From positions 1 to 64,000 of IMG/VR virus record IMGVR_UViG_3300035684_000002: a stretch of 64,000 bases of DNA; one strand, given 5' to 3'. This document shows positions 734-55,506 of the stretch, one piece after another. Numbering within the stretch: position 1 is the first letter of the stretch; each line of letters begins with the position of its first letter. The notes below the pieces were generated by a model. It was not told the DNA's origin. It did no database searches and saw only the letters and a list, made by a program, of their open reading frames with translations. This DNA comes from a virus. Both the position numbers and the translations under genes were made by a program.

Positions 734-1056
734 CAGCCCGGGACTCGCGCGAGTTCGCCGCCGCCGACCGCGCCCAGGACGTCGAGGTGACCGCCGCGCT
801 GCTGCGCTTCGCGGAGCTGTGCGGTGGCCTCGACGCCACCATCCGCGCCAACCGCGCGGGTGAGCACGGCTACTTCGGGCTGGTGCCGGTCAGCGCGCTA
901 GTCGACCTGCTCGCCGCAGCACGGCCCCATCTACCGGTGCAGAACCCGGCCGATCCGGGCCCCTCGCCCTACGGTCAGGGTGCGGTTGCCGCCGCCGACC
1001 CTGCTGCCGGACCCGACCCGGAGGGCGCACCGCCACCCCCCGACCCGGCCCAGTAA
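730..1056 (+). CDS. hypothetical protein
   Basis: ATG 730 is in frame with track ORF 682..1056. ATGA coupling. Non-shadow amino-acid composition in the N-terminal half. Confidence 0.5.
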   Translation: MTARDSREFAAADRAQDVEVTAALLRFAELCGGLDATIRANRAGEHGYFGLVPVSALVDLLAAARPHLPVQNPADPGPSPYGQGAVAAADPAAGPDPEGAPPPPDPAQ

Positions 1057-1100
1057 CAGGGTTGTTAGGGCCCGACGGGGCACGGAAAGGGATCGGTTAC

Positions 1101-4450: not shown

Positions 4451-4474
4451 CAAAAAATCTTCCCTCCACACCTC

Positions 4475-4511
4475 CCCCCGCTAGCCCGCCCCCGAAGGGG
4501 GCTAGCGGGGG
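4475..4511. terminator. GC-rich hairpin (13 bp stem), possible terminator
   Basis: CCCCCGCTAGCCC...GGGCTAGCGGGGG. No adjacent U-tract. Confidence 0.35.
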
Positions 4512-4569
4512 TGGACGGCCGGCCCGGGTCGACAGGGGACAGAAGAAGATCACCAACACGACCCGGAGG

Positions 4570-5187
4570 ATGGCGACCGTGACCCAGCAGCTGATCGAGC
4601 ACCGGCCGACGGTCCGGCCCGGGTGGGCGAGCCGGACCGTCCGGGCGATCCGGGAGGCGTACCGATGGACGCCCCGGGACTGGGCGGTCTGGGCGGGGTG
4701 CTCCGCGGTCGGGTCGGTAGTGCTGGGCGTGGTGATGCTGATCGCCACCACAGGCGGCGGGACACCGGCCACCGTCACCGCCGCCGTCCCGCCGGCCCCG
4801 TCGGTCACCGTGGCCACCCAGCCGACCAGCTCGCCGACCACCCCGCCGCCCACGTCCACCCCGCCGGCCCCGCGCACCGCGGACGCCCCCCGCGCCCCCC
4901 GGGTGGTGGCGCCGGAGCGAACGGCCCCGGAAACGGCCCTGAGCGCGCCGCAGAGCGCCGAACAGCCCGCCCCCGGTGTCCCGGGCCCGGAGAGCCCCAC
5001 GGCGACGCTCACGGCGACCCCTGAGCCGACCGCCATCGACACGCCCGACCCGACCGCCACCGGGACGCCCTCGCCGACGCCCAGCAGCCCGGCGGAGACC
5101 TCCGTCACCCAGCCGGGCGGTCCGGGAGGTCAGGGCGGACCCGGCGGGCCCGGTGGCGGCCAGGGCGGCTCGCCGACACGCCCGTGA
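4570..5187 (+). CDS. membrane-anchored Pro/Thr-rich protein
   Basis: ATG 4570 follows GGAGG and is in frame with track ORF 4429..5187. One TM segment, then a P/T/A-rich low-complexity tail. Confidence 0.55.
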   Translation: MATVTQQLIEHRPTVRPGWASRTVRAIREAYRWTPRDWAVWAGCSAVGSVVLGVVMLIATTGGGTPATVTAAVPPAPSVTVATQPTSSPTTPPPTSTPPAPRTADAPRAPRVVAPERTAPETALSAPQSAEQPAPGVPGPESPTATLTATPEPTAIDTPDPTATGTPSPTPSSPAETSVTQPGGPGGQGGPGGPGGGQGGSPTRP

Positions 5188-5376
5188 TTGCACGCTCAAT
5201 CGATGGCCGGCGGTAGCGTGCTGGACGCCCGTTCGCTCGACCGTTCGGCTGCCGGTGCCCCCCCCTCGACCGGCAGCTGAAACGTTCACCCCGCACGGAA
5301 CGCTGGTTGAGCGAACGGGCCTCGCACATGATCACGTGCTAGCCCGGCCGATCTCTCACCCCCGGAGGATCACGCG

Positions 5377-9548: not shown

Positions 9549-9993
9549 GCTGGTGGGCGAGCACTCGCGCCCCAGCGAGCCGGCCCCGGGAGGGGGTCGG
9601 GGCCGGCCGGCCAGGTCGACCCGCGGGCGGGTCGGTCGTGCGCTGCTGGGCGCTGTCCTGGTCGTCGCCCTGGCGGCGCTGGTCGTTACCGCGGTGCGCG
9701 CCGCCCAGCCGGCCGCGCCGCCGCCCGCGCGCGCCGGCCTGGTCGGCGCGTGCGACCAGCTGAGCGCCGACCTCGCCGCCGCCGGCTCGATGGCCGCGCT
9801 GCTCGACCTCGACGCGCGTAGCTGGTCGGCGGTGGCCGACCGTTACCGGGCCCGACTGGGTGCCGCCTTCGACCGCGGGGTCGGCGGGCTGCTGGCGTCG
9901 TCGACCCTGGGCGTGCTGTCGGAGCGGCGCACCGCGGTGCTCGCTGCGATCGAGTGGTGCCTGACCGTGGGGTGGGTCCCCCGTGCCACGTAG
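9535..9993 (+). CDS. membrane-anchored hypothetical protein
   Basis: Track ORF 152 aa. One TM segment (LLGAVLVVALAALVVTAV). Confidence 0.5.
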   Translation: MTAAELVGEHSRPSEPAPGGGRGRPARSTRGRVGRALLGAVLVVALAALVVTAVRAAQPAAPPPARAGLVGACDQLSADLAAAGSMAALLDLDARSWSAVADRYRARLGAAFDRGVGGLLASSTLGVLSERRTAVLAAIEWCLTVGWVPRAT

Positions 9994-12185: not shown

Positions 12186-13708
12186 TGGGCACCCTGCTGG
12201 GGTCGTTCCTGCGCGGGGGCAACAGCCTGGCCAGCACTCGGTCGGCGACCGACATCGCCAACATCGACGACTACATCGAGGCGGTCACCCAGTACGCGGG
12301 CGGCATGGGCTGGCTCAACCCCTCGCCCCAGGTGTCGGAGACCCTGCCCGGCGAGCAGGCCACCGAACGCCCGGTGACCGACTTCGCCAGCGCGGCAACC
12401 CAGCTGTTCGGCGGCAGCTCCGTCGTGTTCGCGTGCATGCTCGCCCGCCTCGCGGTGTTCAGCGAGGCGCGGTTGCAGTACCAGCGGATGCGCGGCGGCC
12501 GACCCGGCGACCTGTTCGGCGACCCGACACTGAGCATCTTCGAGCAGCCCTGGGTCGGCGGCATCACCGCCGACCTGCTGGTACGGATGATCACCGACGC
12601 CGACCTGGCCGGCAACGCCTACATCGTCGAGGACCGCAACGAACTGGTCCGGCTGCGGCCCGACTGGGTCGACATCGTGATGGTGCCCCGGTGGACCGAC
12701 CGCGGTCGGCTCGACCCGCGCGACCCGCTGGGCTCGATGGGCTGGGTCAAGCTGGGCTACCTCTACTACGAAGACGGCGTGCGCGACGACCGGGGCGTGC
12801 CGTTCCTGGTCGACGAAGTGGCGCACTTCGCCCCGATTCCCGACCCGCTGGCCAGCTGGCGCGGCATGTCGTGGGTGACTCGGCTGGCCCGCGAGGTCGA
12901 GGCCGACCGCGCCATGACGACCTACAAGGCGCGTTTCATGCGCAACAGCGCCACGCCGAACATGGTTGTCAAGCACCAGCCGCAGGTCACCCCGGCCCAG
13001 GCGAAGGCGTTCGCCGACGTGCTCGACGCGAAGTACGCGGGTGCGGCCAACGCGGGGAAGACCATGCACCTGGGCGGTGGCGCCGACCTGGTCGTAGTCG
13101 GGAAGGACATGCAGCAGCTCGACTTCAAGGGCGTGCAGGGTGCGGGCGAAACCCGCATTGCCGCCGCCGCCGGGGTGCCGCCGATCATCGTCGGGCTGTC
13201 CGAAGGGCTCAGCTCCGCGACCTACTCGAACTACAGCCAGGCGCGGCGCCGCTTCGCCGACGGGACGATGCGCCCGCTGTGGCGCAACGTGGCCGGTGCG
13301 CTGGCGGTGCTGCGCCCGGCGCCGTCCGGGGCCCGGCTCTACTACGACGTGCGCGACGTCGCGTTCTTGCGCGAAGACGCCGACGCCCAGGCGAAGATCA
13401 CCGCCACGAACGCGCAGACCATCCGCACGCTGGTCGACGGCGGGTTTACCCCGGAGAGCGCGGCAGCCTACGTCGCCAGCGGCGGGGACCCGTCGGTGTT
13501 GGTGCACACCGGCCAGCTGTCGGTGCAGCTGCAAGCCCCGGGCACGGTGGCCGGCCAGACCGGCGGTGCCGCGCCGGCCGGCGGCGCTGGCGACTCCGGC
13601 GATGACGACGAAGACGACCAGGCTGCGCGCCGCGCGGCCCCGACCAACGGGCGCGCGCTGCCGGCCGGTATCGCGCCCATCTCCCGGGAGCTGTTGACCC
13701 ATGGCTGA
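12185..13708 (+). CDS. portal protein (HK97 family)
   Basis: Track ORF 507 aa. Position between terminase and protease. Typical portal size with an acidic C-terminus. Confidence 0.88.
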   Translation: MGTLLGSFLRGGNSLASTRSATDIANIDDYIEAVTQYAGGMGWLNPSPQVSETLPGEQATERPVTDFASAATQLFGGSSVVFACMLARLAVFSEARLQYQRMRGGRPGDLFGDPTLSIFEQPWVGGITADLLVRMITDADLAGNAYIVEDRNELVRLRPDWVDIVMVPRWTDRGRLDPRDPLGSMGWVKLGYLYYEDGVRDDRGVPFLVDEVAHFAPIPDPLASWRGMSWVTRLAREVEADRAMTTYKARFMRNSATPNMVVKHQPQVTPAQAKAFADVLDAKYAGAANAGKTMHLGGGADLVVVGKDMQQLDFKGVQGAGETRIAAAAGVPPIIVGLSEGLSSATYSNYSQARRRFADGTMRPLWRNVAGALAVLRPAPSGARLYYDVRDVAFLREDADAQAKITATNAQTIRTLVDGGFTPESAAAYVASGGDPSVLVHTGQLSVQLQAPGTVAGQTGGAAPAGGAGDSGDDDEDDQAARRAAPTNGRALPAGIAPISRELLTHG

Positions 13709-38331: not shown

Positions 38332-40017
38332 TCAGACCTGGCCGGCGGAGAAGTCGCGCAGCAGGGTCGGCACCGCGCCGTCGAAGCCGGACACGTCGAG
38401 CTGGCCGGGGTCGTCGGGGTCGGCGATGCTGAACCGGGTCGGGGTCAGCGCGACGACCGCGAGCCGGGCCGCCGGGTTGATCTCGCGCCGGTACCGGGCG
38501 AGCGCCTGGTGCGGGTGCACCCCGCCGGCCCAGGTCTCGTTGTCGGTGTAGATCACGAACGTGTCGAACACCTTGCCCTTGACGGTGGCCCACGTCATCG
38601 GCAGCGCGCAGTCGGTGCCGCCGAAGGGCAGCCCGGAGATCGCGGCCACGTTGTCGTCGAGCCGGCGGCGGGGCGACAGGTCGAGCGGGGTCAGCGTCGC
38701 CTCGCCGAAGACGCGCGCCGCCCGGCTGCTGCCGGAGGTGAACCCGACGACCTCGCACCCGGGCTCCGTCGCCATCGTCACCAGCGCCATGGCGGCACTG
38801 GCCTCGCGGCACGACAGCAGGGTGCCACCGGCCGGGCTGCCCATCGAGCCGGACACGTCGAGCGCCAGCAGCGTGCGCTTGCCGGCCGGCTCGACCGTCT
38901 CGAACGCGGCGTAGAACCCGGCATCGAGCGCGTCGACCAGCTCGCGCTTCGGCTGCCAGGTCGACGACCCGGCGAGGCTGTGCCCGCTGGCGTAGGTGCG
39001 CTGGGCGAGCAGCAGGGCGACGGGGTGGATGCGCCCGCGCCGCAGCTGCTCGCGGTCGGTCAGCCGGCGGATCACCGTCGCCAGCACCTCGCGGTCGTCG
39101 AGCACGCCGACCCGGGTCAGGCGGGGCAGCTGGCGCAGCAGCGCGCCGATCGGCATCCCGTTGTCGATCATCGCGCGCCAGACCTGGGCGTGACCCAGCG
39201 CGGCGTCGGGCAGCGCCTCCCACGGCAGCCGGAAGTTCTGCACCAGTCCGGCCCAGCCGGGTCCGGCGGTGGCGGGGCTGCGGTCGTGGTCGATCGCCTG
39301 GGCGGCGAGGTGCCCGCGGATCACAGCCGGCAGTGCGTCGGACTGGTCGAGCCCCAGGTGGCCGGTCGCCCAGGCGAGCGCGGCGCGGCGCGCGGCGTCG
39401 TCGTCGGTGGCGGTGCCGACCTTCGGGTGCGCGAGGCGCAGCAGGTCGCGGTGCGACCAGCCCTCGCGCTGGCGGTACTTCACCAGCTGGTACGCCAGCG
39501 AGTCGGCGTCGAAGTTGTCGGCGGCGTACCAGGCGGCGATCGCCCGGCGCAGCCCGCGGCCCCACCCGCGGAACTGCTCGACGTAGCCGGCGAAGGTGAA
39601 CAGGGTCGAGCCGGTGCGGCAGACCTGCGGCACCGCGGTGAGCGCCGCCGACCGGGCGGCGTCGTCGCCCAGCCCGGCCACCGCCGCCAGCGCGAAGATG
39701 GCGGGCTGCTGGCGGAGCGCGCGCCCGGCGAGGCTGACGGCCACGACCTGCTCGACCAGCCAGCTGCCGCGCTCGCGGGCGGCGGTCAGGATGACGTCGG
39801 CGTTGTCCTTCGTGGTCTCGCGCTCGCCGACGTAGAACGTGCCACCGGCCGTGCCCAGGGTGAGGAACCGGTGCACGCGGGTATCGGCGCTGACGTCGAA
39901 GACGAAGCCCCCCGCGCTGTTGCGCACCTGGCGCGGGTCGGCCGGCTGGCTCTGCGGGGTGGCGCGGGTGTTGATCGTCGCGAGCGGGTCGCTGGTGCGG
40001 GTCGAGCTGCGGGCCAC
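38332..40017 (-). CDS. rsr: Ro60 orthologue Rsr (TROVE domain + vWA/MIDAS)
   Basis: Track ORF 561 aa. QVRNSAGGFVFDV...RFLTLGTAGGTFYVGE matches the conserved Ro N-terminus. C-terminal LLALDVSGSMGS MIDAS motif. Y-RNA-like genes lie directly upstream. Confidence 0.9.
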   Translation of the reverse strand: MARSSTRTSDPLATINTRATPQSQPADPRQVRNSAGGFVFDVSADTRVHRFLTLGTAGGTFYVGERETTKDNADVILTAARERGSWLVEQVVAVSLAGRALRQQPAIFALAAVAGLGDDAARSAALTAVPQVCRTGSTLFTFAGYVEQFRGWGRGLRRAIAAWYAADNFDADSLAYQLVKYRQREGWSHRDLLRLAHPKVGTATDDDAARRAALAWATGHLGLDQSDALPAVIRGHLAAQAIDHDRSPATAGPGWAGLVQNFRLPWEALPDAALGHAQVWRAMIDNGMPIGALLRQLPRLTRVGVLDDREVLATVIRRLTDREQLRRGRIHPVALLLAQRTYASGHSLAGSSTWQPKRELVDALDAGFYAAFETVEPAGKRTLLALDVSGSMGSPAGGTLLSCREASAAMALVTMATEPGCEVVGFTSGSSRAARVFGEATLTPLDLSPRRRLDDNVAAISGLPFGGTDCALPMTWATVKGKVFDTFVIYTDNETWAGGVHPHQALARYRREINPAARLAVVALTPTRFSIADPDDPGQLDVSGFDGAVPTLLRDFSAGQV

Positions 40018-40101
40018 GGTGGGCCACCTTCCTGTCGGGGTGTGAGGTTTCCGTTCGAGCTACTTCGTCGGGTGGTGGTGCAGACAGCAAAACAGGCCGG
40101 G

Positions 40102-40219
40102 CTCGCGGGCGTGGTGCAGCATCCGATTGCGCGGGGTGTAGCTCCGCGGTCGTCCTCGCTCCGCCGAAGCGGAGGTCTGACGGACGATTTCTGATAACCG
40201 AATGCATCCGGCCCGCGAG
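40102..40219 (-). ncRNA. Y-RNA-like module 4 (no tRNA-like domain)
   Basis: Closing stem CTCGCGGGC/GCCCGCGAG. 5-prime strand GGGCCGGATGCATTCGGTTATCAGAA, 3-prime strand CACCACGCCC. Internal CTCCGC-TTCG-GCGGAG hairpin. Followed by TGTTTTG. Confidence 0.6.
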
Positions 40220-40237
40220 GACCGACCTGCTGTTAGC

Positions 40238-40306
40238 GAACGGGCGTGTTGCTGGCTGCCGGTGGATTCCATCGCAAGGGGTAACCGACGGCCGTCCGGC
40301 CCGTTC
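40238..40306 (-). ncRNA. Y-RNA-like module 3 (minimal, 69 nt)
   Basis: Closing stem GAACGGGC/GCCCGTTC. GGGCCGGACGGCCGTCGGTTACC ... CAACACGCCC. Confidence 0.6.
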
Positions 40307-40315
40307 TCATTAGCA

Positions 40316-40421
40316 GGTCGGGCATGGGAGTGAGCACCGGATGCCCCGCCGAAGGGGCGCACCCCCGTAGGCGGGGGTGTCAGGAATCGAACCAGATAAC
40401 CGATCCTCGATCGGCCCGACC
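40316..40421 (-). ncRNA. Y-RNA-like module 2 with degenerate permuted tRNA-like domain
   Basis: Closing stem GGTCGGGC/GCCCGACC. CGGTTATC. T-arm-like TCTGG-TTCGATT-CCTGA. Acceptor-like 8 bp stem CACCCCCG/CGGGGGTG closed by CCTA. Short D-like hairpin. Confidence 0.6.
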
Positions 40422-40438
40422 TTCGTTATATAGTTAGT

Positions 40439-40567
40439 GCACGGGCGTGTTAGTGGTACCGGTAAAGGTGCTCTGCCAACTGAGCTACGTCGCCCGAAGA
40501 CGACGGCGGGATTCGAACCCGCGGCCACCCCGTTATCAGCGGATAACCGATCCCGTCCGGCCCGTGC
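40439..40567 (-). ncRNA. yrlA: YrlA-type Y RNA (module 1) with complete circularly permuted tRNA-like domain
   Basis: Closing stem GCACGGGC/GCCCGTGC. GGGCCGGACGGGATCGGTTATC. T-arm GCGGG-TTCGAAT-CCCGC. Acceptor CGTCGTC-TTCG-GGCGACG. TA + D-arm GCTC-AGTTGGCA-GAGC. The 5-prime end coincides with the predicted +1. Confidence 0.75.
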
Positions 40568-40615
40568 GTCAGCGACTGTAGTGCACTACAGCCGGGCACG
40601 CAACATAGGGGTTAG
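40568..40615 (-). promoter_or_regulatory. promoter of the Y RNA-rsr operon, with a distinct palindromic operator (cassette C)
   Basis: -35 TTGCGT (40598-603), 17 nt spacer, -10 TACAGT (40575-80). The spacer holds the perfect 16 bp palindrome CTGTAGTGCACTACAG (40576-91). Upstream site CTAACCCCTATGTTGCG. Confidence 0.6.
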
Positions 40616-40679
40616 GTATCCGGGCTGACCTGCGGGTACACCCTCGACGGGACCGCACCATCACGGAGGTGAGCAGGTC

Positions 40680-40865
40680 GTGGTCAGCGCAGCAGGTGGC
40701 CGCAAGGGGTACGTGGTCAAGTCGAGGCACGACGCCTACCGGAAGATCAAGGCCGGGGGGGCGAGCAAGTCGAAGGCGGCGGCGATCGCGAACGCGGGGC
40801 GCACCGCGGCCGGGCGCAAAGCGATGGCCCGCAAGGCGGCTGCGACCCGGCGCCGTCGCGGGTAG
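40680..40865 (+). CDS. small basic Lys/Ala/Arg-rich protein
   Basis: Track ORF 61 aa. GTG after GGAGG. Followed by a 40 bp palindromic terminator. Confidence 0.55.
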   Translation: MVSAAGGRKGYVVKSRHDAYRKIKAGGASKSKAAAIANAGRTAAGRKAMARKAAATRRRRG

Positions 40866-40882
40866 CTCGCGACGGCCGGACA

Positions 40883-40922
40883 CGACGAAGCCCCCGCACC
40901 AGCTGGTGCGGGGGCTTCGTCG
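40883..40922. terminator. perfect 40 bp palindrome, bidirectional terminator (copy 1)
   Basis: CGACGAAGCCCCCGCACCAG/CTGGTGCGGGGGCTTCGTCG. Its 36 bp core is repeated at 55111-55146. Confidence 0.6.
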
Positions 40923-40962
40923 ACGCTGGCACCCGATCGAAGGGACCAGCCGTCAGCGTAGC

Positions 40963-41366: not shown

Positions 41367-42493
41367 CGGACGTCGCCCGGCAGCGCCTTGCTGCGGCTGC
41401 GCGCGACCTCGACCAACTGCTGCCAGCTCAGCTTCTCGAAGTCGAGGTCGATGCCCAGCGCGTCGGCCAGTTCGCGCCGGTGGGAATCCGCGGCGACGGA
41501 CGCACCGGACTCCGCCGCTGTCGCTCTCGACTCCGGCGTGGCGAGCTGCCCGACCAGGTTCAGCAGCCCGCCCCAGGTGTTGGCGTCCGGATCGACGTCG
41601 AGCGCGCGGGCCAGCTCGACCACGCTGTTGCGGCTGACCTCGCGGGTGTAGCGCACCAGCGAGGCGACGTCGCCCAGCAGGTTGACCCACGACCACCCGT
41701 CGGTCGGTGTTCCGCGCTCGATCGGGTAGCCCAGCGCGCCGGCCAGCTCGCGGGCGCGCTGGCGGTTGTCCGACCGGCTGGCCTCGACCAGCGAGGCGAC
41801 CGCGGAGAGCATCGCGGTGACGCCCTCGCTGGTGCGCCAGGTGTCCTCGCCGGTCATGTCGATGCCCAGCCGTTCGGCGAGCGCGTCGACCAGCAGGCTG
41901 TAGTGCCGGGGCTCCGGGTGCAGCCCGTCGACCTGCGCCAGCTCGCCGGTGTCGACGCTGTCGTCGGCTGCGGTATCGGTGCTCTGCGCGGCGACCAGCT
42001 GGCGCACCCGGCCCAGCAACGCGGCGACCGCGCCCGCCCCCAGCCGCGCCGACTCCGACGGGTCCGCGCCCAGGGCGATGGCCAGCGAGGTGACCGGGAT
42101 CGTCGGGCCGAAGGGCACTTCGCGCTGGCGCACCAGATCGAGCAGCTGCCCCCACCCGGCGACGCCGTCATCGACGTGCGCGCCCAGCGCACGGGCGAGG
42201 TCGTCGGCCATCTGCAAGGCCAGCGCGGTGCGGGCTTCCTGCTGCTGGGCGGCGATGCGCTCGCCGACCTCGCCGACCCCGGCGGCCAGCTGGCCGGCGA
42301 GGTCGAGCACGGGCACGGCGGCGGACAGCGCGACCAGCGCGCCGATCGCGGAGTACTGCCCGCCGCCCTCGACGACCTGGTCGCCCAGGGTGCCGACCAG
42401 GTCGGCGCGGGCGTCGACGACCTGGTCGTAGACCTCACGGATGGTGGAGTGGTGCAGGATCGTGGTCGGGGGGGTGCGGGTCGGCTCACTCAC
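41363..42493 (-). CDS. repeat protein (about 6 copies of an LAxALGxD...W..LL..V unit), paralogue of 48504..49673
   Basis: GTG 42493 is in frame with track ORF 41363..42568. Internal repeats visible in the translation. Confidence 0.65.
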   Translation of the reverse strand: MSEPTRTPPTTILHHSTIREVYDQVVDARADLVGTLGDQVVEGGGQYSAIGALVALSAAVPVLDLAGQLAAGVGEVGERIAAQQQEARTALALQMADDLARALGAHVDDGVAGWGQLLDLVRQREVPFGPTIPVTSLAIALGADPSESARLGAGAVAALLGRVRQLVAAQSTDTAADDSVDTGELAQVDGLHPEPRHYSLLVDALAERLGIDMTGEDTWRTSEGVTAMLSAVASLVEASRSDNRQRARELAGALGYPIERGTPTDGWSWVNLLGDVASLVRYTREVSRNSVVELARALDVDPDANTWGGLLNLVGQLATPESRATAAESGASVAADSHRRELADALGIDLDFEKLSWQQLVEVARSRSKALPGDVR

Positions 42494-43028
42494 TGCCGTC
42501 TCCGATCTGTCGTCGTCGTTCCTGGTCGAGTCGTTCGAGGTGTGCCGCGCGTCGGGCGTCGAGCGCATCGTTGATCGCGGCGTTGGCGTCGGCGTTCATC
42601 ACGACCTCGCTGCGTACCGGGGCGTAGGCGCCGGTCAGCTTCGCGGCCTGGTCCATCGCCTTGCCCAGGTCGGGCATCACCGCTTCCCACCGGCGCAGCC
42701 GTTCGTCGTCGGTGAGGTCGCTACGGTCGATGCCCAGCAGCCCGGCGCCGTAGCGCACCAGCTCCGCGGATAGGCCCAGCAGCGAGCGCTTCGCCATCAG
42801 CTGCTCGACCATGTCGCGCGAGGTCGCGGCCTGCTCGCCCTCGCGGACCCACTTCGAGGCGGTCGGGTGGGTGACGCCCATCTCGCGGGCGATCTGCCGG
42901 AAGGACTGCGGCCGGCCCTGCCAGTCGCCTACCCCGTGGAACCGTTCGTAGGCTTCGGCGATCTTGTCGGCCCGGTCGCGCTGGTCGTCGGCGCTGGTGC
43001 TGTCCGGGCCCGGGGTGCCCGGGTTCAT
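42486..43028 (-). CDS. HTH DNA-binding protein (small-terminase-like architecture)
   Basis: ATG 43028 is in frame with track ORF 42486..43163. SFRQIAREMGVTHPTASKWVREG HTH followed by a helical C-terminal half. Confidence 0.6.
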   Translation of the reverse strand: MNPGTPGPDSTSADDQRDRADKIAEAYERFHGVGDWQGRPQSFRQIAREMGVTHPTASKWVREGEQAATSRDMVEQLMAKRSLLGLSAELVRYGAGLLGIDRSDLTDDERLRRWEAVMPDLGKAMDQAAKLTGAYAPVRSEVVMNADANAAINDALDARRAAHLERLDQERRRQIGDGSE

Positions 43029-44252: not shown

Positions 44253-44546
44253 TTACCGGCGCCGGGCGGGCCCGGCCTTGCTGCGCGGGATCACCGGCAC
44301 GTCGACGCCCTCGCGCCGCAGCACCATGGTGATGCGGCGCCCCACCGCGACCTCCGTCATGCCGGTGATCGCGGCGAGCTGGGCGCGCGTCAGCTTCCCG
44401 CCGTTGTGCACGTCGTGACGGCGCAGCAGCTGGTCACGCGCGGACAGCGCGTCGGTGTGCTCGTTCCATGTCTCGACGACCCGGCCCTGAGCGGCGCGGA
44501 TCGCCTGTTCGGTACCCGCGTCGATCGCGGTCTGGTTGTCGGTCAT
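44253..44546 (-). CDS. HTH DNA-binding protein (leaderless)
   Basis: Track ORF 97 aa. LTRAQLAAITGMTEVAVGRRI HTH. The ATG sits at the predicted +1 of cassette D. Confidence 0.6.
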   Translation of the reverse strand: MTDNQTAIDAGTEQAIRAAQGRVVETWNEHTDALSARDQLLRRHDVHNGGKLTRAQLAAITGMTEVAVGRRITMVLRREGVDVPVIPRSKAGPARRR

Positions 44547-44597
44547 GGCGTCATCCTAACCTGGCTGTTATCGGCTGGTCAACCGGGGTGTTATCCG
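44547..44597 (-). promoter_or_regulatory. promoter/operator cassette D (leaderless type)
   Basis: -35 TTGACC (44577-82), 18 nt spacer, -10 TAGGAT (44553-58), 6 nt, then ATG 44546. Operator-like ATAACAGCCAGGTTAG and GATAACACCCCGGTTGA. Confidence 0.55.
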
Positions 44598-48424: not shown

Positions 48425-48507
48425 CGTGGTCCCCTTCCCCGCCCGGTCCGTCCGGGCATGGCACTACCTTAACACCCCCGTCAGAGGTGGCGCAACAGGG
48501 GGGTTAG
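48425..48507 (-). promoter_or_regulatory. promoter/operator/leader cassette E
   Basis: -35 TTGCGC (48490-95), -10 TAAGGT (48466-71), +1 at 48459. Operator CTGACGGGGGTGTTAAG. Leader identical to cassette H. Confidence 0.6.
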
Positions 48508-49673
48508 TCGCGGTAGCTGTCTTCGACCACGTCGCTGTCGTCGAAGTCCGGGTCGACCCGGTCGGCTGGCTGCGGGCGCGGATCGTCGAGCAGGACCGGG
48601 CCATGGGTCAGCAGCTCCGACCAGAACAGGTGACCGCCGCCGGCCTCACGGACCCAGCCCTGGGGCCGGCCGTTGTCGAGGTCGCGCAGCCAGGTGATCG
48701 GGTCGCCGGTGTCCTGGTCGTGTGTCCAGACCTGCTCGACCTCCGGGCCCGGTTCGTCGGGCATGGCCAGCTCGCGCGGGTTCTGCGCGGCCAGCAGCTG
48801 GCGCACCCGCTCGAACACCGCGCGCCAGACAGTGACGCCGGAGCCGGGCTCGACGTCGAGCAGTTCGGCCAGCGCCGACCAGGTGCGCGACGGGGTCTGC
48901 TCGGCCAGCTTGCGCACCTGGTCGACCAGCAGGTCGGTGTCGAGTTCGGGGCCGTCGCCGAACAGGGCGGCGCTCGCGCGGCGCAGCTGCGCCAGCTCGC
49001 CCCGCGCCCGGTAGCTCTGGGCGACCCGGTCGACCAGCTCGAAGTCGCCCAGCCGGGACGGGTCGCGCTCGACGGCGGTCGCGATGTCCGCGCGCAGCCG
49101 GGCTAGCGTGCGCACGCTGTCGACCAGCTGGTTGTCCGACAGCGGCGCCATGGTCGAGCGGCCCAGCGCCAGCGCGAGGTGCCCGCGCAGTTCGTCGAGC
49201 TGGCGGCGGTTGCGGGCGCTAGCCTCGCGGGCGTCGGCTGCCTGGGTCTCGGCAGCGTCGACGACGTCGCCGACCAGGTCGGCCACGTCGACCAGCGGCC
49301 GGAGGTCGTCGACGTCGAGGTCGGCGTTGCGGGTGGCGAGCAGGTTCCGCAGCGCCCACCGCGTCCGGCGCTGGTCGGCGACCACGGCGGTGATCTCGCC
49401 CAGCAGCTGGTGCCAGGGGGGCACCGCGCCGCCGGGCCAGTCAAGGGCGCGGGTCAGCTCGAAGCGGGCTGCCTGCCAGGTGGCGTCGGCCACCGCGGTG
49501 TCGACCAGCCCGACGGTCGTCGGCGACACCGCGGGCGCCATCGTGGTCTCGACCTGCTCGGCGCGGGCGGCGAGCTGGTCGACCAGGTCGGCCAGCGGCG
49601 GGATGGGCGCGTCGTCGTCGAGGTCGAGCAGCCCGGCCAGGCGGGCGCGGGCGGCGAGCAGCGCGGCGCTCAC
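48504..49673 (-). CDS. repeat protein, paralogue of 41363..42493
   Basis: Track ORF 389 aa. The same LxxALxxD...W..L..V-type units. The TAA stop lies in the cassette E upstream site. Confidence 0.65.
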   Translation of the reverse strand: MSAALLAARARLAGLLDLDDDAPIPPLADLVDQLAARAEQVETTMAPAVSPTTVGLVDTAVADATWQAARFELTRALDWPGGAVPPWHQLLGEITAVVADQRRTRWALRNLLATRNADLDVDDLRPLVDVADLVGDVVDAAETQAADAREASARNRRQLDELRGHLALALGRSTMAPLSDNQLVDSVRTLARLRADIATAVERDPSRLGDFELVDRVAQSYRARGELAQLRRASAALFGDGPELDTDLLVDQVRKLAEQTPSRTWSALAELLDVEPGSGVTVWRAVFERVRQLLAAQNPRELAMPDEPGPEVEQVWTHDQDTGDPITWLRDLDNGRPQGWVREAGGGHLFWSELLTHGPVLLDDPRPQPADRVDPDFDDSDVVEDSYRD

Positions 49674-49879: not shown

Positions 49880-49955
49880 GTCGGGTGGTCTCCGTTCCGT
49901 TCGGTGTGGTCGTAGCCTAACACCCAGGTTAGGCGAGGTGCAACAGGGGGGTTAG
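49880..49955 (-). promoter_or_regulatory. promoter/operator cassette F (short leader, no hairpin)
   Basis: -35 TTGCAC (49938-43), -10 TAGGCT (49914-19). Operator CTAACCTGGGTGTTAG. Confidence 0.55.
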
Positions 49956-50268: not shown

Positions 50269-50312
50269 GGGAGTAGCTTAACACCCCTGTTAGCGAGGCG
50301 CAACCCCGGGGG
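50269..50312 (-). promoter_or_regulatory. promoter/operator cassette G (leaderless type)
   Basis: -35 TTGCGC (50299-304), -10 TAAGCT (50275-80), 6 nt, then ATG 50268. Operator CTAACAGGGGTGTTAAG. Confidence 0.6.
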
Positions 50313-50330
50313 TCGAAGTCGCTCCGGGCG

Positions 50331-50810: not shown

Positions 50811-50890
50811 CGTGGTCCCCTTCCCCGCCCGGTCCGTCCGGGCATGGCACTACTCTAACACCCCTGTTAGCGAGGCGCAACCCCCGGGGT
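50811..50890 (-). promoter_or_regulatory. promoter/operator/leader cassette H
   Basis: -35 TTGCGC (50875-80), -10 TAGAGT (50852-57), +1 at 50845. Operator CTAACAGGGGTGTTAG. Leader hairpin present. Confidence 0.6.
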
Positions 50891-50913
50891 CGGAACTGGT
50901 CCCGACCCCGGGG
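50882..50913 (-). terminator. stem-loop terminator
   Basis: 12 bp stem CCCCGGGGTCGG/CCGACCCCGGGG. Confidence 0.5.
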
Positions 50914-52465: not shown

Positions 52466-52550
52466 CGTCGGGGGCTCCGTTCCGCCCGGTCCGTCCGGGC
52501 ATGGCAGAACAGTAACACCCCTGTCAGAGCGAGCGCAACCCCCCTGTTAG
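52466..52550 (-). promoter_or_regulatory. promoter/operator/leader cassette I
   Basis: -35 TTGCGC (52533-38), -10 TACTGT (52509-14), +1 at 52502. Operator CTGACAGGGGTGTTAC. Upstream site CTAACAGGGGGGTTGCGC. Leader hairpin present. Confidence 0.6.
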
Positions 52551-52604
52551 AGATCGCCGCCGGCGAGGTGTTCCCGCAGGTCAACGGCGAGTTTCGCCCC
52601 GGTG

Positions 52605-52676
52605 TTGACGGGAGCTAACAGGGGTGTTAGTGTTCTCCCATGCCCGGACGGACCGGGCGGGACGGAGACCAGGACG
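52605..52676 (+). promoter_or_regulatory. promoter/operator/leader cassette J
   Basis: -35 TTGACG (52605-10), 17 nt spacer, -10 TAGTGT (52628-33), +1 at 52640. Operator CTAACAGGGGTGTTAG. 37 nt leader with hairpin. Confidence 0.65.
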
Positions 52677-52919
52677 ATGGACGCGAACACCCCCTACAGC
52701 ACCGGCGAGGCCACCGACATGGCGGTCATGCTGCTGATGCGCAAGCTGCGCCGGGGGCTGTCCTTCGAGGTGGCGCTGGCCCAGCTGCCCGACGGGGCGC
52801 GCGAGGCGCTAGCCCACGCCGAGCAGTGCGGCGACGACGTGCGCTTCGCCGACCAGGCGGCCGGCATCGGCTTCGGCGACCGGCCCTGGCCGACCCGGTT
52901 CGCCGACCTCGACGACTGA
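52677..52919 (+). CDS. small hypothetical protein
   Basis: ATG 52677 follows GACGGAGACC and is in frame with track ORF 52602..52919. Confidence 0.6.
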   Translation: MDANTPYSTGEATDMAVMLLMRKLRRGLSFEVALAQLPDGAREALAHAEQCGDDVRFADQAAGIGFGDRPWPTRFADLDD

Positions 52920-52926
52920 CCCCCGC

Positions 52927-52952
52927 GGGGGCCCGGCTCCGGCCGGGCCCCC
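52927..52952 (+). terminator. stem-loop terminator
   Basis: 11 bp stem GGGGGCCCGGC/GCCGGGCCCCC with loop TCCG. Confidence 0.5.
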
Positions 52953-52962
52953 GACCTGGGCC

Positions 52963-53043
52963 CTGACCTGCGGGAACAGGTGCCAGGAAGATTTTCTAAC
53001 AGGGGGGTTGCGCACCTGCTAACAGGGGTGTTAGAGTACTCCC
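52963..53043 (+). promoter_or_regulatory. promoter/operator cassette K (leaderless type)
   Basis: CTGACCTGCGGGAAC..., upstream site CTAACAGGGGGGTTGCGC, -35 TTGCGC (53008-13), operator CTAACAGGGGTGTTAG, -10 TAGAGT (53032-37), 6 nt, then ATG 53044. Confidence 0.65.
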
Positions 53044-53391
53044 ATGACGAAGCGCACCGAGTACACCGCCACCGCCCCCAACGGCTCCGCCTACACCTTC
53101 ACCGCCAGCACGAAGCCGGCGGCGGTTCGGTTCCTCGACATCACCGGCACCCGGATGGACGATGGCCAGCCCAACGTCGGCGACCGGTCCTACATCATCA
53201 GCACCCACCGCAGCGTCAAGGCGGCCGGCACCAGCTTCCAGTCCCCGACCTGGCGCGAGCTGCTGGTGCCGGGCTCCGTGGTGACCGACATCCGCGAGGC
53301 TGGCGCCCCGACCGGCCCGGTCTGCACCAGCTGCTCGACCCCGCTGCCGGTGGAGGCGGCCGGCGGGGACGGGCGCTGCGGGCTCTGCTGA
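53044..53391 (+). CDS. hypothetical protein with C-terminal Zn-ribbon (leaderless)
   Basis: Track ORF 115 aa. CTSC...CGLC. Confidence 0.65.
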   Translation: MTKRTEYTATAPNGSAYTFTASTKPAAVRFLDITGTRMDDGQPNVGDRSYIISTHRSVKAAGTSFQSPTWRELLVPGSVVTDIREAGAPTGPVCTSCSTPLPVEAAGGDGRCGLC

Positions 53392-53398
53392 GCCCCCG

Positions 53399-53422
53399 GG
53401 GCCCGGCTCCGGCCGGGCCCCA
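53399..53422 (+). terminator. stem-loop terminator (near-copy of 52927-52952)
   Basis: GGGGCCCGGC-TCCG-GCCGGGCCCC. Confidence 0.5.
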
Positions 53423-53431
53423 GCTGGGCCC

Positions 53432-53512
53432 CTGACCTGCGGGAACAGGTGCCAGGAAGATTTTCTAACAGGGGGGTTGCGCACCCGCTAACACCCCTGT
53501 TATAGTTCTCCC
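53432..53512 (+). promoter_or_regulatory. promoter/operator cassette L (leaderless type, direct repeat of K)
   Basis: First 54 nt identical to K. Operator core flipped (CTAACACCCCTGTTAT). -10 TATAGT (53501-06), then ATG 53513. Confidence 0.65.
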
Positions 53513-53827
53513 ATGCAGCGCACCGGAACCCCCGCCCCCACCGCCCCCGCCGGCTTCACCGCCGACGACCTCTGCCCCACCTGCCACGGTGCCGGCCAGG
53601 TCGAGGACACCCTGTCGGTCATCGAGGACGAGACCCCCGACCAGGTCGAGTGCGACGACTGCGACGGCGTCGGCTGGTCCAAGCCGGCTCCGGTCACCGA
53701 GACCAATGCCCAGCTGGCGATCCGCCGGATGCGCGAGCACTTCGCGGAGGTGCACCCGGACGGGGACCTGACCCTGGGCCCGGGCTGCCGCTGGGCGACC
53801 TGCGCGGTGGTGCGGGCGGCCCGCTGA
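53513..53827 (+). CDS. small protein with DnaJ-type CxxCxGxG zinc finger (leaderless)
   Basis: Track ORF 104 aa. CPTCHGAGQVED...CDDCDGVG. Confidence 0.65.
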   Translation: MQRTGTPAPTAPAGFTADDLCPTCHGAGQVEDTLSVIEDETPDQVECDDCDGVGWSKPAPVTETNAQLAIRRMREHFAEVHPDGDLTLGPGCRWATCAVVRAAR

Positions 53828-53918
53828 CGGGCTGGCCGCCAGCCCCCGGCCCCTACCACCCCGCCGACCAGCTGCGCCCGGCACAGCGGCGCTCAGCGCC
53901 TCGCGCGAGGTCGGGCCG

Positions 53919-54023
53919 CTGACCTGCGGACATGCCGCGCTAACAGGGGGGTTGCGCTCCGCTGACAGGGGTGTTAGAGTAGTGCCATGCCCGGACGGAC
54001 CGGGCGGGACGGAGGAAGCCAGG
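53919..54023 (+). promoter_or_regulatory. promoter/operator/leader cassette M
   Basis: CTGACCTGCGGACA..., TAACAGGGGGGTTGCGC, -35 at 53952-57, operator CTGACAGGGGTGTTAG, -10 TAGAGT (53975-80), +1 at 53987. 37 nt leader with hairpin. Confidence 0.65.
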
Positions 54024-54203
54024 ATGGCGAGAGTCTGGGTCGGGACCGCACCGAAGCGGCGCAAGCCCTGCGACGGGCTGTGCGGCGGCCAGGGCGGCGA
54101 CGTCACGGTCGAGGTCTACAGCGTCTACGACCCCACGAAGCTGCTACGGGTGGAGACCAAGCCGTGCCCACGCTGCAACGGCAGCGGCGAGGTCGACGCC
54201 TGA
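54024..54203 (+). CDS. 59-aa zinc-finger protein
   Basis: ATG 54024 follows GACGGAGGAAGCC and is in frame with track ORF 53952..54203. CDGLCGGQGG...CPRCNGSG. Confidence 0.55.
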   Translation: MARVWVGTAPKRRKPCDGLCGGQGGDVTVEVYSVYDPTKLLRVETKPCPRCNGSGEVDA

Positions 54204-54209
54204 CCCACC

Positions 54210-54245
54210 GGCCCGGGGCCCAGCTCGCCAGCTGGGCCCCGGGCC
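54210..54245 (+). terminator. stem-loop terminator
   Basis: 16 bp stem GGCCCGGGGCCCAGCT/AGCTGGGCCCCGGGCC. Confidence 0.55.
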
Positions 54246-54268
54246 CCGACCCCGAAGGGGGGGGCGCG

Positions 54269-54508
54269 ATGCGCCCTGAGATCGACGACACGGGCCGCGA
54301 GGACCACGGCCGGGCCGCCACCTGGGCGCTGGTCTGCGCGCCCCTGGCCGCGCACCTGGGCGGCGACTCCGGCTCGCCCGCGGTCGGCGCGGTGCTGTGG
54401 CTGGGCGTGGCGTTCGCCGTGGCCCAGCTGCTGCTCGCGCGCCACCCGGTGCCGGCCTCGCCGCCGGACCCGCCGCACCCGTTCCGCCGGGCCGGCGACC
54501 CGGTCTGA
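54269..54508 (+). CDS. small membrane protein
   Basis: ATG 54269 is in frame with track ORF 53987..54508. Two hydrophobic segments. No cassette of its own. Confidence 0.45.
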   Translation: MRPEIDDTGREDHGRAATWALVCAPLAAHLGGDSGSPAVGAVLWLGVAFAVAQLLLARHPVPASPPDPPHPFRRAGDPV

Positions 54509-54520
54509 CCCAGCTCGACC

Positions 54521-54554
54521 ACCAGCCCCCCGGCCACCAGGCCGGGGGGCTGGT
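54521..54554 (+). terminator. stem-loop terminator
   Basis: 15 bp stem ACCAGCCCCCCGGCC/GGCCGGGGGGCTGGT with loop ACCA. Confidence 0.55.
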
Positions 54555-54661
54555 CCGCATCCGGGGAAACCCTGGTGCGCACCCCGGTGTCCGCGCGTGT
54601 CCGCGCCCCTGACCTGCTGTCCGCCGGTGTCCGCGGACGTCCGGCGGACACCGGGCAGCTC

Positions 54662-54749
54662 GCGCTAACAGGGGGGTTGCGCTCACCCTGACAGGGGTGT
54701 TAGTGTTCTCTCATGCCCGGACGGACCGGGCGGAGACGGAGACCAGGAC
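54662..54749 (+). promoter_or_regulatory. promoter/operator/leader cassette N
   Basis: CTAACAGGGGGGTTGCGC, -35 at 54677-82, operator CTGACAGGGGTGTTAG, -10 TAGTGT (54701-06), +1 at 54713. 37 nt leader with hairpin. Confidence 0.65.
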
Positions 54750-55176: not shown

Positions 55177-55506
55177 CTACACCGGCTCGCCATCCGCGCG
55201 GGCCCGCCGTAGCGCGATCTCCAGCGCGGCGTAGGTCATGCCCAGCCGGCCGGCCAGCTGGGCGACCGACAGGCCGGGCTCGACGGTGCGCAGGTCGACC
55301 ACCTGGCGCACGACCTCGCGCCGCGACCGGGTGGTGCGCGGGTACTGGTCGAGCTGCCCGGCGGCGACCACGCCCGCGCGGCAGCTGGTGCACAGCCCGC
55401 GTCCGTCGTGGCGCCCGGACCCGCGGGCCGGCAGCGGCGAGGCACCGCAGCAGCGGCAGCCGCTGACCCGCGCCCGCCCCCACCGGCCGGCCAGCCGGGT
55501 GCTCAC
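55177..55506 (-). CDS. Cys-cluster + HTH DNA-binding protein
   Basis: GTG 55506 (GTGA overlap), in frame with track ORF 55177..56097. CRCC...CTSC, then LSVAQLAGRLGMTYAALEIALRRA. Confidence 0.6.
   Translation of the reverse strand: MSTRLAGRWGRARVSGCRCCGASPLPARGSGRHDGRGLCTSCRAGVVAAGQLDQYPRTTRSRREVVRQVVDLRTVEPGLSVAQLAGRLGMTYAALEIALRRARADGEPV

Follow-up and report, generated by a model that had tools for sequence, protein, structure and literature searches.

Why should a phage place the same short control element in front of gene after gene, and what would read it? The question is raised by the first 64,000 nucleotides (nt) of IMG/VR virus record IMGVR_UViG_3300035684_000002 (here the window, meaning the whole of this stretch), where a control module of 50-85 bp, referred to below as the cassette, is found 15 times and is also present in close relatives of the phage. 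An earlier note on this DNA had reported at least 15 copies in both orientations together with one isolated operator-like site; all 15 listed copies are present in oriented alignments, and the isolated site is real and lies at 1053-1068. The repeat far exceeds chance expectation. The palindrome CTAACANNNNTGTTAG (CTAACA-N4-TGTTAG) was found 14 times with two or fewer mismatches where 0.10 matches are expected, and none of 100 shuffled sequences reached 14. The 18-mer CTAACAGGGGGGTTGCGC is present in five exact copies, at 52533 (minus strand), 52996, 53465, 53940 and 54665. Only 11.7 % of the genome is intergenic; all 15 cassettes are intergenic and all 15 point at the next gene. No additional cassettes were found in the 9.4 kb of the phage beyond the window. 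A mobile element of the miniature inverted-repeat transposable element type was considered and rejected, as terminal repeats and target duplications are absent and the cassettes lie at a fixed position with respect to start codons.

The window has a G+C content of about 73 % and matches part of a 73.8-kb contig from a soil metagenome (JAXMNJ010891271.1) without differences. The 9.4 kb past position 64000 (L120) was added, and the joined sequence analysed was 73,362 bp. The structural module occupies the plus strand from 0 to 30 kb, and the remainder consists chiefly of small minus-strand genes. The large terminase (9983-11722) is no more than 35 % identical to those of Streptomyces, Gordonia and Mycobacterium phages, the nearest relatives being from Streptomyces phages. 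No nucleotide similarity to sequenced phages was detected by megablast of the region or blastn of the cassette against 50,697 phage records; the sole blastn matches of the cassette were 18-nt chance matches (E = 8). The Pfam and PHROGs batches covered most non-structural proteins of the 73-kb genome, with the virion proteins of about 9.5-32.3 kb left out. Nearly all of the proteins scanned had no annotation, and no phage RNA polymerase or sigma factor gene, WhiB, integrase, recombinase, ParAB or CI-type or other classical repressor was found among them. An Rfam scan of the window gave no matches at the gathering score, and no tRNAs were found.

Relatives were reached through homologues of the helicase (L124, about 84 % identity; L126-L128, about 62 %; L137 and L138, about 48 %), by a pattern scan (L129 and L130) and through homologues of a 97-amino acid (aa) protein described below (L132-L136). 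The metagenomes from which the relatives come are 3300072492, SRR30224763, SRR30224793 and ERZ27228477. Exact-palindrome scans of viral and genome contigs (185,579 representative genomes) produced single chance matches in unrelated organisms only, and a repeat in none. The pattern TAACNCCCCNGTTGY-N13-15-GGGTGTTA had no matches in viral contigs and, in metagenomes, matched only two small related contigs and one unrelated tandem repeat. The last of these (L131:7560-7640 and 12300-12430, contig Ga0078972_1005167, GC 60 %) consists of arrays of a 36-bp unit, GGCGAGCGGGGGGTGTTAACCCCCCGGTTGTTCTCT; the array is probably iteron-like and its match to the pattern coincidental.

All 15 copies contain the elements of a promoter. 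A -35 of the form TTGNNN and a -10 of the form TANNNT were found in every one, separated by 17 nt in six and by 18 nt in nine, and TG is present at -15/-14 in 13. The -10 hexamer occurs in ten versions (TAGAGT, TAGTGT, TACTGT, TATAGT, TAAGGT, TAAGCT, TAGGCT, TAGGAT, TACAGT and TAACCT), with positions 3-5 varying freely. An ATG lies 5-6 nt past the hexamer in 12 of the 15. In four (44546, 50268, 53044 and 53513) this ATG is the gene start of a reading frame with high G+C at third codon positions, and the mRNA is therefore predicted to be leaderless in those four copies. In the relatives, TANNNT and the same geometry were found in 11 of 11 cassettes and also in the promoter of the 44.55-kb type in seven contigs, which represent five distinct phage lineages. 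T1, A2 and T6 of the -10, the TG, the TTG and the spacings are invariant in all lineages of the sub-lineage, and the inner -10 positions, the linker of 4-5 nt and the stretch from the -10 to the ATG are variable. Two cassettes of relatives lack the -35 yet keep the extended -10. In mycobacteria, the -10 preferred by SigA is TANNNT, located at -6 to -13; leaderless mRNAs make up about 24 % of the transcripts, and for translation a 5' ATG or GTG is enough (PMC6448022); the geometry of these promoters and leaderless genes is the same as that of the phage cassettes. The promoter previously proposed, with a -35 TTGCGC, an extended -10 TGnTAnnnT and a +1 about 6 nt further on, fits all of the copies and is backed by the relatives. 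On sequence grounds it is highly probable that the cassettes are sigma-A-type host promoters. Each would be read by the host housekeeping RNA polymerase (sigma-A; TTGNNN, 17-18 nt, TGnTANNNT), with transcription predicted to start 5-7 nt after the -10.

Short dyads are built into these promoters. The minimal dyad TAAC-N6-GTTR gave 32 strand matches, representing 22 sites where 0.23 are expected; 21 are in cassettes, the other is the orphan at 1053, and all 22 have N6 between the arms. Relative to the promoter the dyad takes up three registers, each overlapping the core promoter. At -47 to -34 the right arm GTTG gives the TTG of the -35, and at -24 to -11 the right arm GTTA gives G-14 and the TA of the -10. 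The two sites start 23 bp apart, as had been estimated, or 22 bp apart in the four standard copies with a 17-nt spacer. The third register, -12 to +2, is that of the promoter at 61.09 kb, which the earlier note had listed as a divergent copy; the copy exists, but its -10 is most likely the left arm of the palindrome, TAAC opening the hexamer TAACCT, and in this reading a leader hairpin described below again begins at +3. In each register one arm is accounted for by a promoter element, and the other, unexplained arm is also conserved. The orthologous promoters of the 44.55-kb type in seven contigs keep the arms around the cores AGCCAG, AGCCAC, CATCCC and GAGACC, and those of the 61.09-kb type in five contigs keep them around CTAGGT, CTGCGT, GTATCC and GTCCCC. 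Flipped cores were found at both sites. At the downstream site they distinguish the copies known as K and L, which, as already noted from the letters, are identical over 54 nt and thereafter differ by GGGG versus CCCC; at the upstream site CCCCCT is the reverse complement of AGGGGG. An earlier claim that the TAA stop of the preceding gene lies inside the upstream site in three cases holds for 48504 and 61133, and at 35271 only for a 47-aa open reading frame (ORF).

The dyad is enriched in every relative of the sub-lineage, and the two relatives at about 48 % identity (L137 and L138) do not have the motif, indicating that the cassette is specific to one sub-lineage. The combination of fixed arms, a free core and overlap with the contacts of RNA polymerase is what characterises the sites of a dimeric DNA-binding protein in competition with the polymerase, and a symmetric protein site, as first suggested, is supported by the conserved TAAC and GTTR arms, the variable or flipped core and the three registers. 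We therefore read the dyads as putative operators of a small phage helix-turn-helix (HTH) protein, and place the probability of this reading at roughly 55 %. The LexA box and the iron box were ruled out on spacing and arm orientation, by inspection against their consensus sequences; the LexA box, GAAC-N4-GTTC, differs in spacing from the phage dyad.

The best candidate for the protein that would bind is the 97-aa product of the gene at 44253-44546, itself expressed from a cassette. It contains a visible HTH, LTRAQLAAITGMTEVAVGRRI, and can be aligned with positional orthologues in L126 and L128. Four homologues are 65-79 % identical, and the three examined, in five contigs, all lie behind the same dyad promoter; the promoter of the gene retains the dyad in seven related contigs. 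The AlphaFold model, a confident one (predicted local distance difference test score 83), consists of one long helix followed by an HTH. A candidate autoregulated regulator is a reasonable but unproven description of this protein. A small dimeric protein of this kind would bind the dyads, with TAACAGGGGTGTTA as the putative target sequence of the 97-aa protein, and would compete with RNA polymerase, shutting off at least 15 transcription units together once it had accumulated.

What the cassettes deliver downstream falls into four types: four are leaderless, nine have a hairpin and a ribosome site, one has a plain Shine-Dalgarno (SD) leader and one precedes a Y-RNA-like RNA. A perfectly paired N6-ACGGA-N6, with a 6-bp stem and an invariant ACGGA loop, was found in nine cassettes in the window, always beginning at +3 and extending to +19. 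Behind it, 8-10 nt before the start codon, comes the SD sequence (the GGAG ribosome site), which is (G)GACGGAG or one similarly rich in purines. The 21-nt leader ATGCCCGGACGGACCGGGCGG is present in eight copies with at most one mismatch. The stem varies (GCCCGG/CCGGGC; CGGCGG/CCGCCG at 61.09 kb; CGCCGG/CCGGCG in L124; and GCCCGG/CCGGGT, with a G-U pair), giving compensatory changes across the window, L124 and L129 in the form of three Watson-Crick variants and one G-U variant. In most copies the gene is not in frame with the ATG at the 5' end of its leader, and in L129 this ATG is ACG, so that it probably survives from the leaderless form and is not a start codon in use. The leader hairpin would most likely stabilise the 5' end and mask the 5'-terminal AUG.

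What the earlier reading overlooked is that, in relatives, the two presumed operators are the arms of one hairpin. All seven cassettes of L126-L128 have the form TAACACCCCCGTTGCGC-N6-GYACGGGGGTGTTA-NNNT-N6/7-ATGACGAAC and fold into a single perfect stem of 16-17 bp, from TAACACCCCC to GGGGGTGTTA (a 37-bp palindrome), with a free energy (dG) of -27 to -30 kcal/mol and z of -5.4 to -8.0. These hairpins begin 16-31 nt past the upstream stop codon; their ascending arm contains the -35 and their descending arm the extended -10. The two copies of relatives without a -35 keep the hairpin through other inner stems, GTGC/GCAC and GTACGT/ACGTAC, and it follows that the structure itself is under selection there, most simply as a terminator or a 3'-end stabiliser. 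The tails contain 2-5 U in 8 nt, an enrichment for a genome of 73 % GC that is no true tract. In the window phage about four of the 15 copies can still fold the long hairpin, those at 32.9 kb (z -3.3) and 53.51 kb (L, z -4.6) and, weakly, those at 35.2 and 48.46 kb, and a terminator scan flags two of the 15. The flipped core of L restores complementarity to the upstream site, and K is unfoldable (z 0.0); the flip, which had been taken as something a symmetric dimer site would tolerate, may still be that, but is readable as hairpin-related too. Window copies without the long hairpin have separate GC hairpins just 5' of them, for example at 52925-52950 and 53395-53420. A terminator-like role of the hairpin is thus well supported in the relatives and residual in the window phage. 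We propose that the element descends from, or coexists with, the 37-bp terminator-like palindrome, the operator and hairpin roles not being exclusive. The most economical history would start from a palindrome that was both terminator and promoter, the ends of its arms later becoming operator half-sites if they were not such from the outset.

Several observations weigh against operators bound by the 97-aa protein. Many of the copies are recent duplicates, as seen in the 18-mer that is identical in five and in the 54 nt shared by K and L, and part of the conservation is consequently shared ancestry and not selection. In the hairpin-bearing relatives the downstream site, GYAC-N6-GTTA, makes a poor dyad. 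Pairing with the TGTTA of the extended -10 could be at least part of the reason why the upstream TAACA is kept, and a hairpin model does account for part of the conservation footprint in the standard cassettes. A strict sigma-70 scan recognised one of the 15 promoters (the 44.55-kb copy), because its consensus is tuned to low-GC promoters, a result that is expected for a high-GC host and is not confirmatory. The 97-aa protein has no Pfam match. Its top fold matches in the PDB, to sigma region 4 and to DosR/NarL/GerE-type, DeoR and LysR DNA-binding domains, are not significant (all E > 0.6), and a sequence search against solved structures gave a ROK-family HTH match only, also non-significant. 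There are also three other weak HTH candidates, at 55177-55506 (a 109-aa protein with a sigma-region-4-like HTH), at 42486-43028 and in an 89-aa gene at about 65.9 kb, beyond the window.

A first alternative is that terminator and promoter are combined in one element and that no dedicated DNA-binding regulator exists. The inverted repeat would then be an RNA hairpin that ends or stabilises the upstream transcript, the same DNA would hold the -35 and the extended -10 in its opposite arms and so make an insulated unit of each small gene, TAACA would be kept solely for pairing with the TGTTA of the -10, and the palindromes of the window would be by-products of hairpin-mediated template switching and duplication. 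The seven perfect stems of L126-L128 near stop codons, each with a relatively U-rich stretch after it, argue for such an element, as do the -35-less copies with their substituted inner stems, the foldable window copies at 32.9 and 53.51 kb, where the core flip of L re-establishes pairing, the GC hairpins just upstream of the hairpin-less window copies, and an A-to-G change in the left arm (CTGACA) that is still G-U compatible. It is difficult, however, to see why TAAC arms should persist at both sites when so few window copies can form the long hairpin, or why the promoters of the 44.55- and 61.09-kb types should keep TAAC-N6-GTTR with variable cores in five to seven contigs where that hairpin is impossible. 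A 4-bp A/U stem is too weak for folding, the dyad is found in three registers, the tails are no true U-tracts, and the terminator scan flags only two of the 15 copies. We consider this account unlikely on its own, although a real possibility, and the protein-site model stays primary because the arms persist where a long hairpin is impossible, the 44.55- and 61.09-kb sets included, and because of the three registers. Also unlikely is a palindrome of about 37 bp doing three jobs at once, as an RNA terminator or cap for the upstream transcript, as the sigma-A promoter of the next gene and, at its arm ends, as the operator of a small autoregulated HTH protein. If true, each small gene would be insulated from its neighbours, leaderless and regulated together with the others, the window phage would show remodelling to pure protein operators through core flips and duplication, with the terminators moved outside, and an evolutionary route from RNA hairpin to operator would be visible.

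A bound protein could also act in the opposite sense. In activator-dependent promoters of the middle class, a phage protein at the upstream dyad (-47 to -34) would recruit the host RNA polymerase in the manner of a class II activator or of sigma appropriation, and the cassettes would come on after immediate-early genes of a divergent junction at about 65.8 kb. The upstream dyad does occupy the class II activator position, and the -35 TTGCGC matches TTGACA at only 3-4 of six positions; the junction, with different, dyad-free promoters and an XRE-like first gene, is a possible true immediate-early unit, and the sigma-region-4-like 109-aa protein could be the kind of factor involved. The second dyad, however, lies over the spacer and the -10, or at -12 to +2, where bound proteins normally block RNA polymerase. 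Extended -10 promoters need no activation, the three window copies without an upstream dyad have an unchanged -10 region, and the 17-18-nt spacers are near optimal, unlike those of MerR-type activated promoters. Activation is improbable in this light, and we infer repression. The promoter elements might themselves belong to a different enzyme, GTTGC-N14-GGGTGTTA being the recognition sequence of an alternative sigma factor, a phage polymerase or a phage-modified polymerase. GGGTGT and GTTG are conserved as well as TANNNT is, and resemble the group-3 (SigB/SigF-type) sigma consensus, GTTT-N15-GGGTAT, at 5/6 and 3/4 positions. Yet T1, A2 and T6 of the hexamer are invariant and positions 3-5 free, an ATG exactly 5-6 nt after TANNNT is the leaderless geometry of sigma-A, GGGTGT used as a -10 would give a short leader without an SD, the copies at 44.55, 61.09 and 40.6 kb have TANNNT and no GGGTGT, and the protein scans described above found no sigma factor or RNA polymerase gene. 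Such an enzyme is very improbable. A host dimer, BldD bound to cyclic di-GMP or a similar regulator, could gate the phage promoters by the developmental state of the host. The BldD box of Streptomyces is 5'-TNAC(N)5GTNA-3', and the flexible linker of BldD is reported to accept varied pseudo-palindromes (PMC4151990). BldD is a dimeric XRE-type HTH protein that represses promoters in high-GC actinomycetes, the letters of the arms and the pseudo-palindrome are shared with the phage dyad TAAC-N6-GTTA, and the closest relatives of the terminase are from Streptomyces phages. The phage spacing, in contrast, is N6 at all 22 sites and never N5, and the exact palindrome is repeated in none of the 185,579 representative genomes. 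The motif is also lineage-specific, being absent from distant relatives of similar G+C (0.68 vs 0.73), which is a better fit to a phage-encoded binder, and control by such a host protein is the least probable of these explanations.

Repeated promoter and operator motifs are well known in actinophage genomes, and the kind of system described here is a familiar one; its novelty lies in the sequence, in a layout where dyads and promoter elements share arms, in the use of three registers, in the modular leader and in the descent from a hairpin. The closest known system in kind is that of the Cluster O mycobacteriophages (the Corndog group), in which SigA-like promoters and leaderless starts are predicted and a 17-bp palindrome, TGTTCGGNNNCCGAACA, is found more than 30 times (PMC4351075). 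Both are actinophage systems with several strongly predicted SigA-type promoters, some with the +1 at the first base of the start codon and some divergent, and with a short, mostly intergenic dyad of invariant arms and variable centre in tens of copies, the function of which is a prediction in both. In Cluster O the palindromes and promoters are separate and scattered, whereas here the dyads are built into the promoters and share an arm with the -35 or the -10; the sequence differs, the spacing is N3 rather than N6, and Cluster O has no 5'-hairpin leader module.

The earlier note had likened the arrangement to the repressor-controlled promoters of temperate actinophages. With no integrase, recombinase or classical repressor found among the proteins scanned, which were most of the non-structural ones, that framing is without basis here. 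In Cluster A phages one phage protein is likewise thought to act at 20 or more short sites across the genome, early promoters included, and so to repress in a coordinated way genome-wide, but the stoperators bound by proteins of the L5 gp71 type are 13 bp long, asymmetric, monomer-bound, orientation-dependent, mostly outside promoters and block elongation (PMC9283540). Those phages are temperate and have an integrase. The sites described here are symmetric and tolerate a flipped core, with cores in both orientations, and 21 of the 22 are embedded in promoters, so that the likeness to stoperators does not hold. The Streptomyces-type temperate phage phiC31 has a repressor gene, c, whose product binds conserved inverted repeats of about 17 bp, some of them at promoters, and many near-identical early promoters, which do not look sigma-70-like. 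Many similar promoters and inverted repeats are shared with the cassettes, which have no sequence similarity to those of phiC31 and are sigma-70-like. The hairpins of L126-L128 resemble intrinsic terminators that overlap the next promoter in that a GC-rich hairpin 16-31 nt past a stop codon is followed by a T-rich stretch and the next gene. They differ in that the -35 and the extended -10 lie inside the arms of the same hairpin, with a leaderless ATG 6-7 nt further on and no true U-tract, and we know of no described family with this packing. The cassettes and associated features of the window are listed in Table 1.

Table 1. Cassettes of the window, with the orphan dyad and the candidate regulator gene
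Feature	Coordinates	Strand	-10 anchor	Upstream part and -35	Spacer, downstream dyad and -10	Leader, start codon and remarks
Orphan dyad	1053..1068				GTAACAGGGTTGTTAG	intergenic gap of rightward operon; no TTG -35, no TANNNT
Cassette 1 (32.9 kb)	32872..32955	-	32919	upstream dyad TAACCCCCCTGTTG with -35 TTGCGT	18-nt spacer with dyad TAACTGGGGTGTTA; -10 TACTGT 32919-32914	hairpin leader from 32908; ATG 32871; long hairpin possible (z -3.3)
Cassette 2 (35.2 kb)	35188..35274	-	35238	upstream dyad	CTGACAGGGGTGTTAG; -10 TAGAGT	hairpin leader from 35226; DpdA gene, GTG 35187
Variant cassette (40.6 kb)	40568..40615	-	40580	upstream dyad TAACCCCTATGTTG; -35 TTGCGT	17-nt spacer with other perfect palindrome CTGTAGTGCACTACAG; -10 TACAGT	YrlA-like RNA 40442-40550, upstream of Ro60 gene
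Candidate regulator gene	44253..44546	-				97 aa; long N-terminal helix, then C-terminal HTH
Cassette 4 (44.55 kb)	44547..44594	-	44558	TAACACCCCGGTTGACC	5-nt linker; ATAACAGCCAGGTTAGGAT	6 nt, then leaderless ATG 44546; promoter of candidate regulator
Cassette 5 (48.46 kb)	48425..48507	-	48471	upstream dyad holding TAA stop of gene 48504-49673	CTGACGGGGGTGTTAAGGT	hairpin leader from 48459; ATG 48424
Cassette 6 (49.9 kb)	49880..49955	-	49919	upstream dyad	CTAACCTGGGTGTTAGGCT	SD ACGGAG leader, no 5' hairpin, no 5' ATG; gene ATG 49879
Cassette 7 (50.27 kb)	50269..50316	-	50280	no upstream TAAC; -35 TTGCGC	17-nt spacer; CTAACAGGGGTGTTAAGCT	leaderless ATG 50268
Cassette 8 (50.85 kb)	50811..50893	-	50857	no upstream TAAC	perfect palindrome CTAACAGGGGTGTTAG; -10 TAGAGT	hairpin leader from 50845; ATG 50810
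Cassette 9 (52.5 kb)	52466..52550	-	52514	CTAACAGGGGGGTTGCGC	CTGACAGGGGTGTTACTGT	hairpin leader from 52502; ATG 52465 (513-aa protein); divergent from cassette 10
Cassette 10 (52.64 kb)	52592..52676	+	52628	-35 TTGACG, no upstream dyad	perfect palindrome 52615-52630; -10 TAGTGT	hairpin leader from 52640; gene ATG 52677
Cassette 11 (K, 53.04 kb)	52996..53043	+	53032	CTAACAGGGGGGTTGCGC; preceded by GC hairpin ~52925-52950 and TGACCTGCGGGAAC	perfect palindrome 53019-53034; -10 TAGAGT	leaderless ATG 53044; no long hairpin (z 0.0)
Cassette 12 (L, 53.51 kb)	53465..53512	+	53501	54-nt upstream part as in K	CTAACACCCCTGTTATAGT, core flipped	leaderless ATG 53513; flip makes both sites complementary; dG -19.9, z -4.6
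Cassette 13 (53.99 kb)	53940..54023	+	53975	CTAACAGGGGGGTTGCGC	17-nt spacer; CTGACAGGGGTGTTAGAGT	hairpin leader from 53987; ATG 54024
Cassette 14 (54.71 kb)	54665..54749	+	54701	CTAACAGGGGGGTTGCGC	CTGACAGGGGTGTTAGTGT	hairpin leader from 54713; ATG 54750
Cassette 15 (61.09 kb, divergent copy)	61055..61136	-	61101	upstream dyad holding TAA stop 61133; -35 TTGCGG	different register; 17-nt spacer; -10 TAACCT (most likely) = left arm of dyad TAACCTAGGTGTTA (61088-61101)	leader CGGCGG-ACGGA-CCGCCG, compensatory changes; ATG 61054

The copy at 40.6 kb, previously listed as a variant, exists but has the upstream site only and drives a YrlA-like (Y RNA-like) RNA, not a protein gene. The Rfam match to YrlA, directly downstream of the 40.58-kb cassette, is below threshold (39.5 bits against a gathering score of 69, E = 6e-7) and lies in a 0.9-kb non-coding stretch with tRNA-like modules (40018-40962), in which ARAGORN detected no tRNA. 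This stretch is upstream of a gene for a Ro60/TROVE and vWA protein (38332-40017, minus strand; Pfam E = 1e-47 to 1e-57), and the arrangement is conserved in L126 (L126:19283-21688). The gene driven by cassette 2 (34396-35187, minus strand) encodes a homologue of DpdA, the 7-deazaguanine DNA-modification transglycosylase (Pfam E = 2e-71), which suggests that the phage DNA is modified.

The plus-strand island at 52.6-55.1 kb contains six small genes in five cassette-driven units, several of them bounded by GC-rich hairpins. It has no counterpart in the relatives at about 62 % identity (L126-L128), where the genes continue on one strand. All five upstream sites of the GGGGGG type are in or beside this island, which suggests a lineage-specific inversion, insertion and local duplication. 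Two of the cassette-driven small proteins (53513-53827 and 54024-54203, plus strand) contain zinc ribbons of the CxxCxGxG type; the PHROGs match of the first to Q-like antiterminators is weak (E = 4.6e-5 over 39 aa) and involves the zinc-ribbon part only. No relatives of the 513-aa protein encoded by the gene at 52465 were found in viral contigs.

A second repeated motif, (GGGCCYC)TGACCTGCGG(N)AAC, is present in at least ten copies; its 14-mer gave 28 matches with up to three mismatches against 9.8 expected. The sites are 4091, 4183 and 4330 (minus strand), 6837 and 6919 (plus), 40626 (plus), 52583 (minus) and 52964, 53433 and 53920 (plus), with variants at 50926 (minus) and 54610 (plus). Several cassettes have it 15-35 nt upstream of them, two non-coding gaps close to the primase gene contain it as well, and CTGACCTGC recurs in the post-primase gaps of the distant relatives that have no cassettes (L137:16755-16989; L138:15868-16209). 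Just past the Prim-Pol/AAA_25 primase-helicase gene (1532-4033) is a 1.3-kb non-coding region (4034-5376) with about ten copies of CGGTAGCGC in both orientations, AAGATCA motifs and inverted repeats of up to 32 nt, which looks like a replication origin with iterons.

The main divergent junction lies beyond the window at about 65807-65913 (L120:7450-7556) and corresponds to L126:4357-4487, L127:5059-5159 and L128:976-1081. Its dyad-free promoters (…CATGCCGGGTACGGTAGCGCACG…) are conserved among the relatives and may be the true immediate-early promoters. Rightward is the leaderless XRE-like 89-aa gene, and leftward is a leader that begins ATGCC, followed by a hairpin and then ACGGAG. The helicase of L124, the closest relative (P0002 / L124:7302-10037; 84 % identical), contains a LAGLIDADG intein and is 911 aa long, against 585 aa for the intein-free copy in the window. 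Adjoining the lysis and tail region, an ORF at 30716-31453 (plus strand) codes for a protein that is anchored in the membrane and has long Gly-Pro-X repeats like those of collagen, and the gene next to it (31539-32255, minus strand) encodes a highly charged coiled-coil protein with repeats.

Nothing established is overturned by the cassette system. If the operator reading is true, the cassette defines the regulon and a timing switch of a previously unstudied group of high-GC phages from soil, hardly any of whose proteins has a recognisable function, and one small protein and one 14-bp site would be named as a directly testable pair. The cassettes would also supply portable parts for the engineering of actinomycetes, namely a strong extended -10 promoter, an operator and a choice of leaderless or hairpin-plus-SD start. 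Comparison with the relatives shows with unusual clarity that the same bases can serve as a terminator-like hairpin and as a promoter, and how such a palindrome could turn into protein-binding dyads.

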